IMG/VR virus record: IMGVR_UViG_2703718862_000008
Location: 1-16,054 of that record
Direction: 5' to 3' (one strand)
DNA length: 16,054 nucleotides
From: a virus
Taxonomy: Duplodnaviria; Heunggongvirae; Uroviricota; Caudoviricetes
In this document: positions 2,849 to 11,789 of the stretch, in pieces
How positions within the stretch are numbered: position 1 is the stretch's first letter
Layout: each line of letters starts with the position of its first letter
Position numbers and translations under genes: made by a program
Notes under the pieces: generated by a model
Seen by the model: only the letters and a program-made list of their open reading frames with translations
Told to the model about the DNA's origin: nothing
Databases searched by the model: none

Positions 2849-3004
2849 TTACTCCTCAGGTTCGTAGACTGTGAAGACAGCGACCTCCGTCTGGCCGGTT
2901 CGGATTCGTACCTCGCAGAGGTCTTTCCTCGTTACCAGTGCCGTCACTATGACGGTTAAACAGATGACGATAAGGGCGATTAGCATCGCCTTTTGCTGCT
3001 TCAT
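2849..3004 (-). CDS. hokD: Hok-family membrane toxin (51 aa), HokD/RelF-like
   Basis: Product MKQQKAMLIALIVICLTVIVTALVTRKDLCEVRIRTGQTEVAVFTVYEPEE has one TM helix and matches my recollection of HokD almost residue for residue. GGAG lies 9 nt upstream of the ATG at 3002-3004. An in-frame ATG 19 codons upstream (3061) gives the 70-aa track ORF. Confidence 0.8.
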   Translation of the reverse strand: MKQQKAMLIALIVICLTVIVTALVTRKDLCEVRIRTGQTEVAVFTVYEPEE

Positions 3005-3295
3005 AGCCTGCTTCTCCTTGCCTTTCGGCACGTAAGAGGCTAACCTACGTGTGTAGAGCATAGATATGGCATCAGATTAATGTTAAGCGTCTTGCCGGAC
3101 GCGCAATGTTAACTGGGGCTTTTCTCTATCTGCCTTTTGGTATTCATGCCTGAGACAGATAGCCTCAAGCACCCGCAGCAATTCTACTTAACTATCCTTT
3201 CCCCGCAAATCGTTTTTATCCCCAGCGACAAATCGAATACACCACCAGCGCCACCGCCATTGCGATCCCTACCGTTGTGAATGCCTCAGGCCAGG
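3005..3295 (-). promoter_or_regulatory. hok leader/regulatory region (expected promoter, mok-type upstream translation start, possible Sok-type antisense RNA on the + strand)
   Basis: About 290 nt between the upstream gene stop and the hok ATG. Presence of regulatory RNA is inferred from hok/sok biology; I could not place a convincing Sok promoter or terminator by eye. Confidence 0.3.
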
Positions 3296-3640
3296 TCATC
3301 GTAAAACATCCTCTGCGCTTATCAGTCCGTTTCGCTTCAGGTAGTCCATCGCCTTACCCGGCAATTTACAGTCCGGCTTCGTTTTCCTCAGTTGCCAGGT
3401 TAACTGCTTTACCAGCATGGTTAACTCGTCGACCAGACGCTGATGTCCCACTGGTTTGTATTCATGCAATTTACCGGCTGGCTCTGCTGCCAGCGATGCC
3501 AGTGCGATTTCCAGAACAGCAATATCCATCTTATATGTGCGGATGATGTCATGGTCGATTGTGCCCGGTATGCACAGTCTCTGTGCTTCAATAGTCTCCT
3601 CTGCGTGAGCTATTAACTGCTCTCTGGTAAAAGTGGTCAT
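3296..3640 (-). CDS. hypothetical protein (114 aa); N-terminal domain paralogous to the gene at 4154-4579
   Basis: ATG at 3638-3640 overlaps the upstream stop (ATGA). N-terminus [13 protein letters not shown]...[10 protein letters not shown] parallels MTELTKEQLIEEA...IALTSLEAEP. Confidence 0.6.
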
Positions 3641-4152
3641 GCCGCGCTTCCTTCTTGCTTATTAACGATTACACCGTCATATATTTCATTAAGGTGTCCC
3701 CTCAACTCCATGCGCCTTAATGCAGACAACATGTAATCGCATTCAACCTGCTTATTTCCAGTAAATGGCTTATCGTCAGGATCACCCCAACAGCAATTAC
3801 CCTTGGGCCACCCATGTACTTTCCGTACTCTTCCGTTAACAACGTGAAGTAATCCCCAGCCAGGTGGTAAATCCTCAATTGAAATAATTCCCGGCTCACT
3901 AATAAAGAATCTCCAGTCGCCCATGCCAAGAGAGGGATTTTTACGGAAACGCTTTTTTCTATCTGCCAACAAGTCAGCACGAGAACACTTCGCCTCTATC
4001 AGGCATGATGCTGAATTTCTGAATCCCATAGCATCTGGTTGTTCTCCAGTACTGGTTACAGCAACAAAGCGGTCATGAAAGCAAACCTTGAACCCGTTGC
4101 GCTTAAGGAACCTGTACGCAATCTGACAGAGTTCGCGGTGTGTTAACGCCAT
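3637..4152 (-). CDS. PD-(D/E)xK-type nuclease-like protein (171 aa)
   Basis: Motif EQPDAMGF...[20 protein letters not shown] fits a D/E-x-PD...(D/E)-x-K restriction-endonuclease-fold signature. AAGGAG lies 7 nt upstream of the ATG at 4150-4152; stop overlaps the next start. Confidence 0.55.
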
Positions 4153-4153
4153 C

Positions 4154-4579
4154 TCATTCTCCTTTGATGCGAATGTTTACAACCTGACAAACCTCTTTGA
4201 GTACCCAGTCAACAGCGTCTTTCCACGCTCCAGTCTCAACTGGCGGATTCTCACGTTTTACTTGTTCATAGAAGTGCACAGCTTTAACCAGTCCTTCAGG
4301 TACTACAGGCACTGGCGGCATGCGATACAATGGAGTAACACAACGCGAAGCCTCATATTTATCTGACGGACGCTGAAATATCTCACCGAACCCATATTTT
4401 TCAATATCTCGCAGTTCCTCGTCGTCAGTCCATGCCACCGGTTCTGCTTCCAGCGATGTCAGTGCAATTTTGAATAACTCACCCTCTACTCGTGCCACGC
4501 CTGAATTGGGATGGCATTTCGCAATCGCTATTTTTAATTTGGCTTCTTCGATTAATTGCTCTTTTGTTAATTCAGTCAT
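4154..4579 (-). CDS. hypothetical protein (141 aa); N-terminal paralog of 3296-3640, C-terminus ends IRIKGE
   Basis: ATG at 4577-4579. Shared N-terminal motif described above; C-terminal IRIKGE is encoded by an 18-nt sequence repeated at 5037-5054. Confidence 0.6.
   Translation of the reverse strand: MTELTKEQLIEEAKLKIAIAKCHPNSGVARVEGELFKIALTSLEAEPVAWTDDEELRDIEKYGFGEIFQRPSDKYEASRCVTPLYRMPPVPVVPEGLVKAVHFYEQVKRENPPVETGAWKDAVDWVLKEVCQVVNIRIKGE
4158..4175. repeat. 18-nt module-junction repeat TCTCCTTTGATGCGAATG, copy 1
   Basis: Exact repeat of 5037-5054. On the - strand it encodes IRIKGE at the end of one gene and supplies AAGGAG as the SD of the next. Confidence 0.7.
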
Positions 4580-4674
4580 TTTTCATTACCGCTCTTTCTG
4601 GCGGCCTCCTGATGTTCTGAGGGTGCAGAAATCCCTCCGGCTAAGGATTAAATTTTTAACAGTTCTAAATTTAA

Positions 4675-5031
4675 TTATTCAGTTCTGGATTTTGTCGCCC
4701 TGCGTATCCGCGCTTTCGCGTTACGCTCAATCTGAATTAGCTTTTCTATATTTTTTCGCCTTTCCCGCTCCTCCTGGCGCAAGTGCCTTACATCATCTGC
4801 CAGTCTGGTTTCTCTTTTCGCCACAGAGAGCATCCAGTCAAATGGCTCCACAACTGCACCGCAGATTTTACAGCGGACCTGACGCTCTTTTTCGTCAACC
4901 AGGACAGAGGCGTGATGACAATATGGTCTTTCCGATGGCTCATAAAGAAAATTAACCTGATTACGAGGGTCATCCTCTTTTACCGGAAATAAAACGATAT
5001 TGCTTAACTCATCCTCTGGTTTTATTTCCAT
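4675..5031 (-). CDS. hypothetical zinc-ribbon protein (118 aa)
   Basis: ATG at 5029-5031 preceded by AAAGGAGAGGAG. CHH...(17)...CKIC cluster; basic C-terminal tail. Confidence 0.5.
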   Translation of the reverse strand: MEIKPEDELSNIVLFPVKEDDPRNQVNFLYEPSERPYCHHASVLVDEKERQVRCKICGAVVEPFDWMLSVAKRETRLADDVRHLRQEERERRKNIEKLIQIERNAKARIRRATKSRTE

Positions 5032-5470
5032 GCTCCTCTCCTTTGATGCGAATGCCAGCGACGCGTAATGCGTGTTCTAGGTCAATCAGGTAAAGCCAAC
5101 TGCCATTTTCTTTAGGTATCATGACATGTCGCTCATCTGCATTTATCGGGTGTCCATATCGAAGGTCGTAGCGAGTCGGTAATTGAACTTCCCGCGCTTC
5201 CAGTTCAGCAAGACGCTTGCTCCCATCAGAGATAACGCCTTCGTAATACTCACGCTGCTCGTTGAGTTGTGATTTTGCTTCTTCCAGTCCATCCAGCAAA
5301 TCAGCGATAATATCCGCTTCCCGATGACGGATGTGACGCTTAAACGCAGCAAGAGCCGCATCACAATCCCGTTCAGCATTTGGGCTGTCCGGGATAGCCT
5401 GATACCACGCCAGCGTCGACTGATAGTTTTGTGCTGCCTCACGAAGCGCCTCATAGTTAACCTCTCTCAT
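5009..5470 (-). CDS. hypothetical protein (153 aa), C-terminus GIRIKGE
   Basis: ATG at 5468-5470 overlaps the upstream stop (ATGA). Acidic, helical-looking sequence; no family assigned. Confidence 0.55.
   Translation of the reverse strand: MREVNYEALREAAQNYQSTLAWYQAIPDSPNAERDCDAALAAFKRHIRHREADIIADLLDGLEEAKSQLNEQREYYEGVISDGSKRLAELEAREVQLPTRYDLRYGHPINADERHVMIPKENGSWLYLIDLEHALRVAGIRIKGEEHGNKTRG
5037..5054. repeat. 18-nt module-junction repeat TCTCCTTTGATGCGAATG, copy 2
   Basis: Exact repeat of 4158-4175, in the same coding and SD context. Confidence 0.7.
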
Positions 5471-5763
5471 TGAGCCACCTCCTGATAAATCACCGCATGC
5501 CCCAGTTTCTCCGCCAGTGCCAGCTCTGCCTTAGCGCCCGCTGACCGCTGCCAGCCATTCAGCATGTAAATCGCATCCACACAACGAATCATTGCCATGC
5601 AAATATCCATGTAGTGCGGCTGTGTCAGCCCGTCCGGAAGTACTGCCGGGTTTAAGACGGTATGCCCTTCCCGTTTCAGTTCCTCTTCCGCCTTGTGAAA
5701 CGCCTCACGGTTGAAATTTTCATATCCCGTCATTGGACCGGCAATATAAACTCTGACCCTCAC
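5467..5763 (-). CDS. nucleoside 2-deoxyribosyltransferase-like protein (family I recall as DUF4406), 98 aa
   Basis: Rossmann-like N-terminus VRVYIAGPMTG...NPA...GWQRSAGA typical of that fold. The start must lie upstream of YIAGPMTG, so a GTG at 5761-5763 with AGGAGG 7 nt upstream is chosen; it overlaps the upstream stop by 4 nt. Confidence 0.55.
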   Translation of the reverse strand: MRVRVYIAGPMTGYENFNREAFHKAEEELKREGHTVLNPAVLPDGLTQPHYMDICMAMIRCVDAIYMLNGWQRSAGAKAELALAEKLGHAVIYQEVAQ

Positions 5764-6152
5764 TCCATCACCTCCTGAAAGTTTCCCCGATAGAACGCCA
5801 GCACACGCTGCATAACTTCGCTCTGGCGGCACTCACGACAAATTATGTTCTGCCGTCTGTTGTAACGACGTATTTCTCCGTCAGGTAACTTTCGAATCAG
5901 TGTCGGGTCAGCAGCCTTCTCCGGTGTCTTACGCCATACGCGATACGCCTGCTCTGATGGAAATACCCCGCAACCAGAGAGCCAGACATCACCACTGGCC
6001 GCAAGCGCACCAGATAAACGACGAATAGCGGTCTTACTGACACCCGTTTTATCTGCCAGTTGTCGAAAAGTTTCTCGTCCGCTCAGGCGCACGAATTCCA
6101 CAATGCGCGCCTTCACTTCTTCCCGCTCTTCTGGTGTAAATACTTTTGCCAT
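5760..6152 (-). CDS. hypothetical HTH-containing protein (130 aa)
   Basis: ATG at 6150-6152 with GGAGG 5 nt upstream (the track start at 6167 lacks an SD). HTH-like segment TFRQLADKTGVSKTAIRRL. Confidence 0.5.
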   Translation of the reverse strand: MAKVFTPEEREEVKARIVEFVRLSGRETFRQLADKTGVSKTAIRRLSGALAASGDVWLSGCGVFPSEQAYRVWRKTPEKAADPTLIRKLPDGEIRRYNRRQNIICRECRQSEVMQRVLAFYRGNFQEVME

Positions 6153-9782: not shown

Positions 9783-10142
9783 TTATAATCCAACCAGGCT
9801 TTCCAGGGGGATACCAAATTGATTATGAAGACGGCGAATCATTGGTAACGTAAGGCTTCTGGTACCATTCAACACCTCATAAACCCGATTTTTTTTCCCA
9901 ATTGCGGGTTCCAAATCTTTCACAGTCAGCCCCTGCTGTTCCATGCGAAATCTTATAGCTTCAATTGGGGATGGTGGCTCAATGGGATAATGTTTTTTTT
10001 CATATTCCTCTATTAGCAAACACATCACCTCAAAAAAATCCCCCTCAGGCGTGTCAATTTCGGGCTCATTGTCGAACATGGGTTCAACAGCACGCAACGC
10101 GGCTTCATAATCTTGCTCTGTACGAATAGGTTTGATGTTCAT
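9783..10142 (-). CDS. higA: HigA-like HTH antitoxin (119 aa)
   Basis: ATG at 10140-10142, 2 nt after the higB stop. C-terminal HTH IGKKNRVYEVLNGTRSLTLPMIRRLHNQFGIP resembles E. coli HigA (YgjM) as recalled. Toxin-first order is typical of higBA. Confidence 0.7.
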   Translation of the reverse strand: MNIKPIRTEQDYEAALRAVEPMFDNEPEIDTPEGDFFEVMCLLIEEYEKKHYPIEPPSPIEAIRFRMEQQGLTVKDLEPAIGKKNRVYEVLNGTRSLTLPMIRRLHNQFGIPLESLVGL

Positions 10143-10144
10143 GC

Positions 10145-10447
10145 TTACTCCAGTTCGATGGTATCAGCATCAATAGCATCGTATTCCTTGTGGTTTCCGA
10201 TGAATTTAACAAATACCCATCCTCGCTGATACGCAATTGCAACAATTAAACGGTAATGATTACCTTTTATGTTGAATACCACGCGCCGGTTTTTCAATAT
10301 ACTGGCCGTTCGGTATTGTACCTTTATGTCTGCTGGGCTTTTCCAGTCAGCTTTTGCCGCCTCATCCACCCATGCCCTTAGCGGTTGTTCTGCATCAGGA
10401 TTCTCCGCCCAAAAATCCCTGAGTGTTTTAACTGAGATAATCTTCAT
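10145..10447 (-). CDS. higB: HigB-family (RelE-fold) mRNA interferase toxin, 100 aa
   Basis: ATG at 10445-10447 (the track ORF extends upstream to 10492). MKIISVKTLRDF...RRVVFNIKGNHYRLIVAIAYQRGWVFVKFIGNHKEYD aligns with K-12 HigB ...HYVFNVGGNELRVVAMVFFESQKCYIREVMTHKEYD from memory. Confidence 0.75.
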   Translation of the reverse strand: MKIISVKTLRDFWAENPDAEQPLRAWVDEAAKADWKSPADIKVQYRTASILKNRRVVFNIKGNHYRLIVAIAYQRGWVFVKFIGNHKEYDAIDADTIELE

Positions 10448-10453
10448 AACTGT

Positions 10454-10482
10454 ATAGTAGTCCCATTTTGGGACTGATGCAA
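10454..10482 (-). promoter_or_regulatory. candidate higBA promoter with operator palindrome in the spacer
   Basis: - strand: -35 TTGCAT (10482-10477), 17-nt spacer containing the palindrome AGTCCCAAAATGGGACT (10475-10459), -10 TACTAT (10459-10454). The ATG is 6 nt downstream, implying a near-leaderless mRNA. Confidence 0.4.
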
Positions 10483-10490
10483 CAGCTCGC

Positions 10491-10544
10491 AATTACAAAT
10501 TTAATAATAAACATGTTGACCAGTTAAATTTTAATTTGTAAATT
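10491..10544 (+). promoter_or_regulatory. OL-like operator and early-left promoter
   Basis: AATTACAAATTTAA (10491-10504) and ATTTGTAA (10534-10541) bracket -35 TTGACC (10516-10521), 17-nt spacer, -10 TAAATT (10539-10544) on the + strand. Confidence 0.45.
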
Positions 10545-11566: not shown

Positions 11567-11624
11567 TTTCTGGTGACGTTTGGCGGTATCAGTTTTACTC
11601 CGTGACTGCTCTGCCACCCTTTTT
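11567..11624 (+). ncRNA. dicF: DicF small regulatory RNA (about 53 nt mature) plus U-tail
   Basis: tttctggtgacgtttggcggtatcagttttactccgtgactgctctgccaccc followed by ttttt matches the DicF sequence as I remember it. It sits immediately upstream of dicB as in Qin. Confidence 0.8.
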
Positions 11625-11628
11625 AAAG

Positions 11629-11789
11629 TGAATTTTGTGATGCGGTGAATGCGGCTATGCGCACGCGGAACAGTTAAAACCGTAAAGTGGTCTTTTACGG
11701 GGCGTAACGGGCATCCTTCTGTATTCCGGCGTTAATTGTTAACTGGTTAACGTCACCTGGAGGCACCAGGCACCGCATCACAAAATTCA
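11629..11789 (+). repeat. 19-bp perfect inverted repeat (TGAATTTTGTGATGCGGTG at 11629-11647; CACCGCATCACAAAATTCA at 11771-11789) enclosing a 123-nt structured segment; candidate RNase III processing stem of the dicF-dicB transcript
   Basis: The inverted repeat is read directly from the sequence. An inner hairpin CCGTAAA...TTTACGG lies near 11680-11700. Confidence 0.6.

Follow-up and report, generated by a model that had tools for sequence, protein, structure and literature searches.

Phage genomes are mosaics, and it is debated whether their modules are joined by homologous exchange at short linkers or by random illegitimate joining followed by selection. In lambdoid phages, short conserved "boundary sequences" were described with the HK620 genome (Clark, Inwood, Cloutier, and Dhillon 2001, as cited in PMC3029335), and the linker idea is ascribed in the same source to Susskind and Botstein (1978). 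In the mycobacteriophages Island3 and Brujita, two adjacent genes (gp67 and gp68) end in identical residues and share about 50 bp of DNA, and only one of the two phages has the gene that lies in between, a difference that the authors ascribe to short-repeat recombination (PMC3029335). For efficient pairing, Red-beta is reported to need a segment of at least 23-27 bp and RecA one of at least 31-34 bp (De Paepe et al. 2014, PMC3945230). Ea22 of lambda and Stx phages is known for mosaic domains, portable domains such as DUF551 and gene insertions in ea22; these papers deal with the same gene family as one of those considered here, describe its mosaicism at the protein level and, in their accessible text, make no mention of an IRIKGE/Shine-Dalgarno (SD) joint or of a DNA-level role (PMC10834534; PMC8614690). 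[quoted passage not shown]

The stretch analyzed here, referred to as the window, comprises 16,054 nt of phage DNA. It contains exactly two copies of the 18-mer TCTCCTTTGATGCGAATG, at 4158-4175 and 5037-5054, the positions that the initial annotation had reported; both are read on the minus strand. No third copy is present even at up to three mismatches, and the 18-mer is the sole exact repeat of at least 18 nt in the window. About 0.002 exact 18-nt direct repeats of any kind would be expected in 16 kb, from (16054^2/2)/4^18, and two matches were found in 0 of 200 shuffles of the sequence, which excludes a chance origin; with the 18-mer also recurring in hundreds of related loci, coincidence is vanishingly improbable.

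Copy 1 reads C ATT CGC ATC AAA GGA GA, that is (N)IRIKGE, and its IRIKGE is the true C-terminus of a 141-aa ORF at 4154-4579 (...N-I-R-I-K-G-E-TGA); after the TGA come one G and the ATG (4152) of a 171-aa ORF at 3637-4152. Copy 2 encodes (G)IRIKGE within the 153-aa Ead/Ea22-like gene at 5009-5470 and is followed by eight more codons (EHGNKTRG*), near but not at the C-terminus, and the 118-aa ORF that starts with the ATG at 5031 overlaps the 153-aa ORF by 23 nt. A homologous 153-aa/118-aa gene pair is annotated with the same overlap arrangement in RefSeq. The view that both copies encode a C-terminal IRIKG(E) thus holds for copy 1 and needs a correction for copy 2, which lies eight codons before the stop. 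Both copies contain AAGGAG, 6 nt before the next ATG as read from the sequence, so the proposed supply of the ribosome-binding site of the next gene is borne out at each joint.

All four genes at the two joints lie on the minus strand. Upstream of joint 2, the 153-aa gene matches PF13935 with 45.7 bits (gathering cut-off, 27), and the downstream module is a zinc-ribbon-like gene (118 aa, 4675-5031, phrog_1621), which is preceded by the block described below in 117 of 117 cases in a downstream-anchored sample. At joint 1, the upstream module is the 141-aa gene (phrog_660), whose protein had no Pfam match in a profile search and was assigned to PHROG 660 only, and was therefore not placed in PF13935. 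The downstream module, the 171-aa gene (phrog_9263/631), encodes a protein with no match in Pfam or NCBIfam.

The 18-mer lies within a block of about 31 nt, GCTGGCATTCGCATCAAAGGAGAGTGA(T/G)ATG, whose invariant core it forms and whose consensus is GCT GGC ATT CGC ATC AAA GGA GAG TGA N ATG. This block combines the last codons of the upstream gene, (A)GIRIKGE, with AAGGAG placed 6 nt before an ATG and with adjacent stop and start codons. The full block of copy 1 (4150-4181, minus strand), GTAAAC-CATTCGCATCAAAGGAGA-ATGAG-ATG, is a divergent variant of the consensus and consists of gene tail, SD, the TGA stop (4154-4156) and the ATG start of the 171-aa gene (4150-4152). That of copy 2 (5029-5059, minus strand), GCTGG-CATTCGCATCAAAGGAGA-GGAGC-ATG, has four substitutions relative to the 31-nt consensus; its stop is replaced, so that the upstream ORF runs on, and its ATG (5029-5031) starts the 118-aa gene. 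In enterobacterial temperate phages, the block tail is carried by genes of the ead/ea22 family and by some accessory early genes unrelated to them. All 125 copies analyzed place the 18-mer close to the end of a gene and in the IRIKG frame, with a stop zero or a few codons past the tail, and 116 of them have an ATG at the fixed distance of 6 nt from the SD; the copy of lambda itself has ATC where ATG stands elsewhere. In most of the 60 listed phage records, the match spans two annotated genes.

Where the flank classes on both sides differ, the block is 91% identical, compared with 27% for the flanks, and the exact run common to junctions with unrelated flanks has a median of 27 nt (IQR 24-29), with 89% reaching at least 23 nt. 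When seven third-codon positions were left free in the scan, the exact 18-mer was still recovered in 111 of the 120 matches, and the codons CGC, ATT, AAA and GGA were each found in 120 of 120. Only about two synonymous and about two non-synonymous events were counted in the I-R-I codons.

The initial annotation had proposed to search related prophages for the 18-mer and to tabulate its flanks. This search returned at least 120 viral contigs and 389 phage records, and the block was found in 3,087 of 5,426 complete Escherichia coli genomes (57%), with a median of 2 places per genome and up to 11, and 439 of the places in this genome set were on plasmids. Carriers include lambda (end of ea22, 29,844-29,874), HK620 (at the hkaG|hkaF boundary), P7, P22-like phages and Stx phages. 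The only K-12 prophage looked at, the cryptic prophage CPS-53, does not contain the block. Among 45 matches in species-representative genomes, 32 were lambda DNA contaminating unrelated assemblies. The other 13 comprised seven enterobacterial loci (four Escherichia, two Shigella and one Shimwellia), five gut metagenome-bin contigs labeled Segatella, Bacteroidales, Collinsella or "uncultured bacterium" (labels as given), and one Kitasatospora contig that, at 99.0% lambda, lies slightly below the contamination cut-off.

The flanks of the block are extensively reassorted. With gapped-BLAST flank classes, 202 unique contexts fall into 15 upstream and 22 downstream unrelated classes; 68 combinations of these are observed, the four-gamete rectangles number 147 and the cycle rank is 33. 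Ungapped classing gave 20 and 27 classes and 76 combinations. Loss of homology is concentrated within 20 nt of the core and is much rarer over the following 80 nt: pairs of loci with more than 100 nt in common on the left lose homology within 20 nt right of the core in 673 cases and in the next 80 nt in 17, and pairs with more than 100 nt in common on the right lose it within 20 nt left of the core in 830 cases and in the next 80 nt in 74, while 9,164 of the 11,476 pairs have nothing in common beyond 20 nt on either side, although such pair counts are not counts of independent events. The exact 18-mer served to collect most of the loci, many of them being E. coli prophages that are close relatives of one another; counting by class and the scans with degenerate positions or a downstream anchor correct for this only partly. 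Variable positions -15 to -2 are explained by upstream class (0.26-0.83) and hardly at all by downstream class (about 0), and the reverse is true of positions +18 to +32, which are explained by downstream class and not by upstream class. The switch of linkage from the upstream to the downstream class falls inside the invariant core, which is the 18-mer.

In the window, the two copies bracket an 879-bp cassette (4176-5054, minus strand) that holds the 118-aa and 141-aa genes and one copy of the repeat. This cassette is precisely absent from E. coli JNEC-KY203 and 127 other complete genomes. A junction built in silico from the tail of the 153-aa gene, the block and the 171-aa gene matches continuous sequence, at 97-98% identity, in 128 of the 5,426 genomes. 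L240 aligns to the window in two segments, and their 19-nt overlap is exactly the repeat. The breakpoint of the 879-bp presence/absence difference lies in the repeat. The exact identity of the two copies in the window extends over only 18-19 nt, below the published pairing minimum, so direct exchange between them would be inefficient; the 879-bp difference may stem instead from other, longer-matching partners. A moron-like cassette would bring its own promoter and terminator; this possibility was rejected, since neither was found above shuffled expectation in 3200-5900, a region that includes the cassette. A recombinase search in the window found no annealase; RusA is present, and the 823-aa "exonuclease" has only an Rv2179c-like domain.

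The initial annotation had suggested that the repeat could act as a recombination joint, and the 68 flank combinations, the linkage switch inside the 18-mer and the recombinant found in 128 genomes support this reading, as does the position of the 18-mer near a gene end throughout the copies analyzed. It is probable, from the sequence comparisons, that the block serves as a gene-boundary adaptor at which homologous exchange would swap modules while the ribosome-binding site and the reading frames are kept. Since many unrelated gene pairs are separated by the same block, recombining partners would find a median of 27 bp of perfect identity in it, and exchange there could join any upstream to any downstream module. 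The exchange could be driven by host RecA or by phage annealases of the Red-beta/RecT/Erf type, and the partners could be co-resident prophages and infecting phages, or two copies within one prophage. As both frames and the ribosome-binding site would survive, each recombinant would be expressible at once. The layout of the joints, with the SD inside the upstream ORF and either TGA-G-ATG (copy 1) or a 23-nt overlap (copy 2), fits the translational coupling predicted for them. Uniformity of the block might be maintained by selection through its role in translation and by homogenization through repeated exchange. At the window locus, the two-gene cassette would have been gained or lost, in either direction, through exchange at the repeat.

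An unlikely alternative is that the block is conserved for coding only, as a functional IRIKGE C-terminal peptide combined with an optimal ribosome-binding site and coupling, and that the junctions arose by illegitimate recombination and selection. The SD-stop-start half (AAAGGAGAGTGATATG) is universal upstream of the 171-aa gene and is also found after the diverged tail ...LRTKGE*, which indicates that conservation of the block is partly an ordinary ribosome-binding-site constraint. The RNA is unstructured there, as an accessible ribosome-binding site should be, and conservation upstream of the core fades gradually at the amino-acid level (R-A-A-G). The prevailing view (PMC3029335) is that most phage mosaic joints have no conserved sequences. 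Selection on a peptide does not, however, predict that the third-codon positions of I-R-I-K-G should be nearly invariant over at least 15 unrelated upstream contexts, and the peptide itself varies (IGIKGE, IRTKGE). The tail is carried by proteins as unrelated as Ead/Ea22-like, XF1762/Mom-like and HNH_3+AP2 proteins, a DUF977 fusion and 27-aa mini-ORFs, and on unrelated enzyme families, as in the XF1762/Mom-like protein, it falls outside the family profile. At least 33 independent reassortments would each have needed a random breakpoint in the same ~20 nt.

It could also be argued that an ea22-like gene was duplicated in tandem long ago in this prophage and that the repeat is simply what is left of this event, the tail reflecting paralogy and having no role in exchange. 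The 141-aa and 153-aa proteins do have their last ~29 residues in common at 45% identity, and the 114-aa and 141-aa neighbors are N-terminal paralogues. This origin is nevertheless very improbable, given the exact 18-nt identity within a segment of 45% amino-acid identity, the recurrence of the block between unrelated left and right flanks in hundreds of phages, and the precise presence or absence of the cassette between the copies among genomes; simple paralogy of the two host genes was rejected, as only the 29 aa are common and the block is also found on unrelated families. Insertion of cassettes by a site-specific activity that targets the block, such as a homing endonuclease or an integron-like recombinase, is suggested by the HNH_3+AP2 endonuclease among the tail-bearing upstream proteins, by an HNH gene near ea22-like genes in a related prophage and by a candidate PD-(D/E)xK-like motif in the 171-aa gene, which often follows the block. 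Such a target is extremely doubtful, because one of the 13 upstream protein clusters and none of the downstream ones contains HNH, no single gene constantly adjoins the block, the block has neither an inverted repeat nor a hairpin, and it is found in different operons (exo-xis in lambda, nin-like in the window, and also on P1/P7-type plasmids). A structured RNA or riboregulator was excluded by the absence of an Rfam match at the repeat site and by folding of both copies and the consensus, which gave no structure (z-scores +0.5 to +0.9).

Returning to the adaptor reading, the idea of swapping at such sites is that of the known boundary-sequence model and is not new; what is added here is the prevalence of the block, the reassortment counts, the linkage switch and the verified gain or loss of a cassette. 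Like the lambdoid boundary sequences, which have likewise been proposed as a focus of homologous recombination, the block is short and conserved, lies at boundaries of modules that are reassorted in early ("metabolic") regions, has flanks that differ by phage and contains the exchange points; unlike them, it is partly coding and forms a protein tail. The abstract of the 2001 HK620 paper reportedly mentions seven boundary sequences. A full-text literature search, of which Clark et al. (2001) was not part, found no description of this particular joint. With Island3 and Brujita, the window shares a repeated gene tail and a gene in between that is present or absent, but that case is a single event between two phages, whereas hundreds of phages have the block, which is found in dozens of module combinations and also carries the ribosome-binding site of the next gene. 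The mechanism invoked is relaxed homologous recombination by Rad52-like phage recombinases, in which temperate phages and prophages recombine where their homology is short or diverged; the exchanges of De Paepe et al. (2014, PMC3945230) extend over hundreds of bp of diverged homology, in contrast to the defined ~30-bp joint seen here. Integron cassettes (attC) are comparable in that promoterless cassettes are swapped at a short conserved site and expressed from an upstream promoter. The block differs in having no integrase, no attC hairpin, no array-terminal attI and no constant neighbor across operons, and the exchange at it would be driven by homology and not site-specific.

Among phage mosaic joints, the block is an unusually clear and abundant natural case of the linker model. 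Because the block is present in lambda and the length of the presumed exchange zone matches the pairing minimum of Red-beta, this model can be tested by standard lambda genetics. The block also offers an explanation of why ea22-like and nearby accessory genes of Stx and other prophages resist classification, and it carries a warning for annotation, as a common tail does not imply a common function. More speculatively, and with considerable doubt, the block might belong to a standardized set of adaptors maintained for promoting exchange, a homology-based cassette system without a recombinase of its own that would serve accessory and host-takeover genes of enterobacterial temperate phages, and the encoded tail would then have no protein function of its own. 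Other promiscuous short blocks are found at the same loci, namely the DUF551 start PVTPDGWISCSERMP, the DUF551 end PEPPQE with GGAGG, the SD and GTG start of ea22-like genes, and the motifs IDYQALRE, MTTIT and LASLEA.

In the window, TCTCCTTTGATGCGAATG occurs at exactly two places, 4158-4175 (copy 1) and 5037-5054 (copy 2), and a mismatch scan found no third copy there even with three mismatches allowed. It is the only exact repeat of at least 18 nt in the window; two matches were obtained in 0 of 200 shuffles, and by calculation about 0.002 exact 18-nt direct repeats are expected in 16 kb. All genes here lie on the minus strand; read on that strand, the repeat is C ATT CGC ATC AAA GGA GA. The initial annotation described each copy as a C-terminal IRIKGE that also provides the AAGGAG of the next gene. 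The ribosome-binding site is borne out at both copies, with an ATG 6 nt after AAGGAG, whereas the C-terminal position holds for copy 1, the true end (…VVNIRIKGE-stop) of a 141-aa ORF (4154-4579, -), and not for copy 2, where 8 codons remain before the 153-aa ORF (5009-5470, -) ends in …AGIRIKGEEHGNKTRG-stop. The 171-aa ORF (3637-4152, -) starts via TGA-G-ATG right after copy 1, and the ATG of the 118-aa ORF (4675-5031, -) overlaps the 153-aa ORF by 23 nt. No promoter, terminator or structured RNA was found at the repeat site.

The window represents a lambdoid prophage of E. coli whose integration site adjoins yccA. The repeat-bearing genes sit in the rightward early operon, downstream of replication genes (DUF1376/DnaT-like and P-like), DUF1627, DUF977 and DUF4406 and ahead of DUF968, RusA and a Q-like gene, and this order therefore marks a nin-like accessory region. 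The 153-aa protein is Ead/Ea22-like (PF13935, 45.7 bits). A homologue is named 'sigma-E factor regulatory protein RseB domain-containing protein' in RefSeq, which is probably an over-annotation; the MucB_RseB match of the 153-aa protein is under its cut-off (20.8 vs 22.3 bits), with Ead_Ea22 well over its own. The 141-aa and 153-aa tail-bearing proteins have in common only the last ~29 residues (45% identity). The 141-aa protein shares its N-terminus with a 114-aa neighbour, both of them members of PHROG 660, and the 118-aa protein carries a zinc-ribbon signature. No Pfam or NCBIfam match was found for the 171-aa protein, whose gene is a frequent downstream neighbour of the joint; its PD…E-A-K pattern (…EQPDAMGF…) may recall PD-(D/E)xK nucleases.

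The reading frame is IRIKG(E/D) in all 125 copies first collected. A stop follows the tail directly in about two thirds of these, 8 codons on in nearly all others and further away in a few, and in 116 an ATG lies downstream at a constant distance. From non-redundant junctions a block of ~31 nt with high information content emerges, GCTGGCATTCGCATCAAAGGAGAGTGA(T/G)ATG; upstream of it information fades over about 6 more nt (R-A-A-G), and past the ATG there is none. A degenerate scan leaving seven third-codon positions unconstrained returned 120 matches, among them 111 exact 18-mers, with ATT, CGC, AAA and GGA each present in 120/120. Such invariance at synonymous sites in unrelated contexts points to identity by descent or homogenisation at the DNA level, beyond peptide selection alone. 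In samples anchored on downstream genes, which were not chosen for carrying the block, the exact block stands before the 118-aa gene in 117/117 cases and before the 171-aa gene in 63/113. The 171-aa gene also follows a diverged tail, …NHLRTKGE-stop, in ~39/113 cases, with only AAAGGAGAGTGATATG in common, and IGIKGE or IRTKGE variants in 8/113; the SD-stop-start half is therefore the most widely shared part, and the peptide shows no strict conservation. A 64-aa gene ending …NRWKNHLRTKGE-stop upstream of the 171-aa gene (e.g. context CGCAAAACCGCTGGAAAAACCACTTGCGCACTAAAGGAGAGTGATATG) likewise has only AAAGGAGAGTGATATG in common with the block, and its junction looks like a diverged form of the joint.

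Tabulation of flanks at related loci showed that different genes adjoin the 18-mer. The IRIKGE tail ends several unrelated kinds of ORF, including Ead/Ea22-like proteins, an XF1762/Mom-like protein whose family profile does not extend to the tail, an HNH_3+AP2 endonuclease and a DUF977 fusion. It is also carried by 27-aa mini-ORFs (upstream cluster U1, e.g. loci L001 and L038) such as MSGIDYQASITAGIRIKGEEHGNKTRR, in which the N-terminal start of an ea22-like gene is joined to the tail block with the 118-aa gene always next; these look like internal deletions of ea22-like genes with both gene boundaries preserved. The genes that follow the block include one for a dATP/dGTP pyrophosphohydrolase with DUF551 and one for a ClpX-zinc-finger protein, besides the 118-aa and 171-aa genes and many small ORFs. 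When 152 unique contexts (300+18+300 nt) were compared pairwise, 80% of pairs had nothing in common beyond ±20 nt of the core. Among pairs matched for >100 nt on the left, right homology ended within 20 nt in 673, vs 17 in the next 80 nt; among those matched for >100 nt on the right, left homology ended within 20 nt in 830, vs 74. Clustering of 150-nt flanks, minus the 15 nt beside the core (gapped BLASTN, single linkage), gave 15 classes upstream and 22 downstream for 202 unique contexts, paired in 68 different ways, with 147 four-gamete rectangles and a cycle rank of 33, i.e. at least 33 joinings beyond a tree, in samples that are phylogenetically non-independent.

The point of exchange was located from the variation per variable block position explained by flank class, after subtraction of a shuffled baseline. 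The upstream class accounts for variation at positions -15 to -2 (0.26-0.83; downstream about 0), and the downstream class for that at +18 to +32 (0.37-0.74; upstream about 0-0.25). The switch falls within the invariant -1 to +17, the very 18-mer at which breakpoints had been proposed. An in-silico recombinant, in which the 18-mer joins the 220 nt preceding copy 2 to the 220 nt following copy 1, is contiguous in 128/5,426 E. coli genomes (100% coverage, 97-98% identity) and in one viral contig (L172). In E. coli JNEC-KY203 the two alignments to the window overlap by 19 nt (5054-5036 and 4175-4157); the 879-bp cassette of the 118-aa and 141-aa genes, carried by the window and missing from JNEC-KY203, thus has both its ends precisely within the repeat.

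The exact 18-mer is found in at least 120 IMG/VR contigs, and a 37-nt consensus matched 389 phage records. Lambda ea22 ends in …SDAGIRIKGE-stop, exact 18-mer included, HK620 has the block at the hkaG|hkaF boundary, and P7 and other P1-like plasmid prophages, P22-like Salmonella phages and many Stx phages carry the consensus. Of 5,426 complete E. coli genomes, 3,087 contain the consensus; the number of places per genome has a median of 2 and reaches 11, and 439 places are plasmid-borne. Of 45 hits to a 20-mer in species-representative genomes, 32 fall in unrelated species (Streptococcus, Streptomyces, Shewanella, Bacillus and others), most of them on ~48.5-kb contigs or on small contigs of low coverage. 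Identity to phage lambda is at least 99% for all 32, which are therefore lambda DNA contaminating public assemblies; such contamination explains most hits outside Enterobacteriaceae.

The conserved block, the reassorted flanks, the exchange points in the core and the predicted recombinant are all direct observations; the finding is real, and its interpretation as a recombination joint is supported. The block would act as a pairing segment for homologous exchange. Junctions with unrelated flanks share an exact run of median 27 nt (IQR 24-29; ≥23 nt in 89%), and the shortest segments that pair efficiently are reported to measure 23-27 bp with Red-beta and 31-34 bp with RecA (PMC3945230). The window's own copies have only 18-19 nt in common, a caveat on this mechanism, and no annealase genes are encoded in the window. 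Selection for the ribosome-binding site and stop/start arrangement would keep the block, making every new combination expressible in the polycistronic early operon, and the exchanges themselves may homogenise it. Integron-type and homing-endonuclease mechanisms were rejected, the defining features of each being absent.

The idea of boundary sequences or linkers is credited to Clark et al. 2001 (HK620) and Susskind and Botstein 1978 in PMC3029335, which also describes a one-off mycobacteriophage analogue where an inserted gene is flanked by a shared gene end of ~50 bp. Ea22 proteins are described as mosaic with portable domains in the available text of PMC10834534 and PMC8614690, where, as in the full-text literature searches, the IRIKGE/SD joint goes without mention. 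The block may be one of the boundary sequences of Clark et al. 2001; it is a new and well-documented instance, or possibly a re-discovery, of an element type already known. It offers a tractable way to test the linker model, which gives it real value; the surprise for a specialist is modest.

A k-mer scan of loci L001-L191 for sequences with unrelated flanks on both sides turned up other short 'promiscuous' blocks: the DUF551 domain start CCGGTAACTCCGGATGGTTGGATAAGCTGTAGTGAGCGAATG = PVTPDGWISCSERMP (17x17 flank classes), the C-terminus of DUF551, where PEPPQE is accompanied by a GGAGG SD, the SD and GTG start of ea22-like genes, and the motifs IDYQALRE, MTTIT and LASLEA. Partial copies occur in the window at 3625-3640 (MTTFT start of the 114-aa gene) and, for the LASLEA type, at 3485-3502 and 4445-4462. 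This suggests that the IRIKGE joint is one of several in the ea22/DUF551 gene set, whose accessory genes resemble a super-mosaic with several joints, both within genes and between them. A full-length match to sok antitoxin RNA (RF01794, 109 bits; 2999-3174, -) indicates a putative hok/sok-type toxin-antitoxin locus, placed between DUF968 and the accessory genes. A HigB/HigA-like toxin-antitoxin pair (9783-10492, -), recognized from a homologous prophage's annotation, adjoins the immunity region. DicF sRNA (RF00039, 70 bits; 11568-11619, +) lies upstream of dicB and is directly followed by a perfect 19-nt inverted repeat with arms at 11629-11647 and 11771-11789, 123 nt apart.
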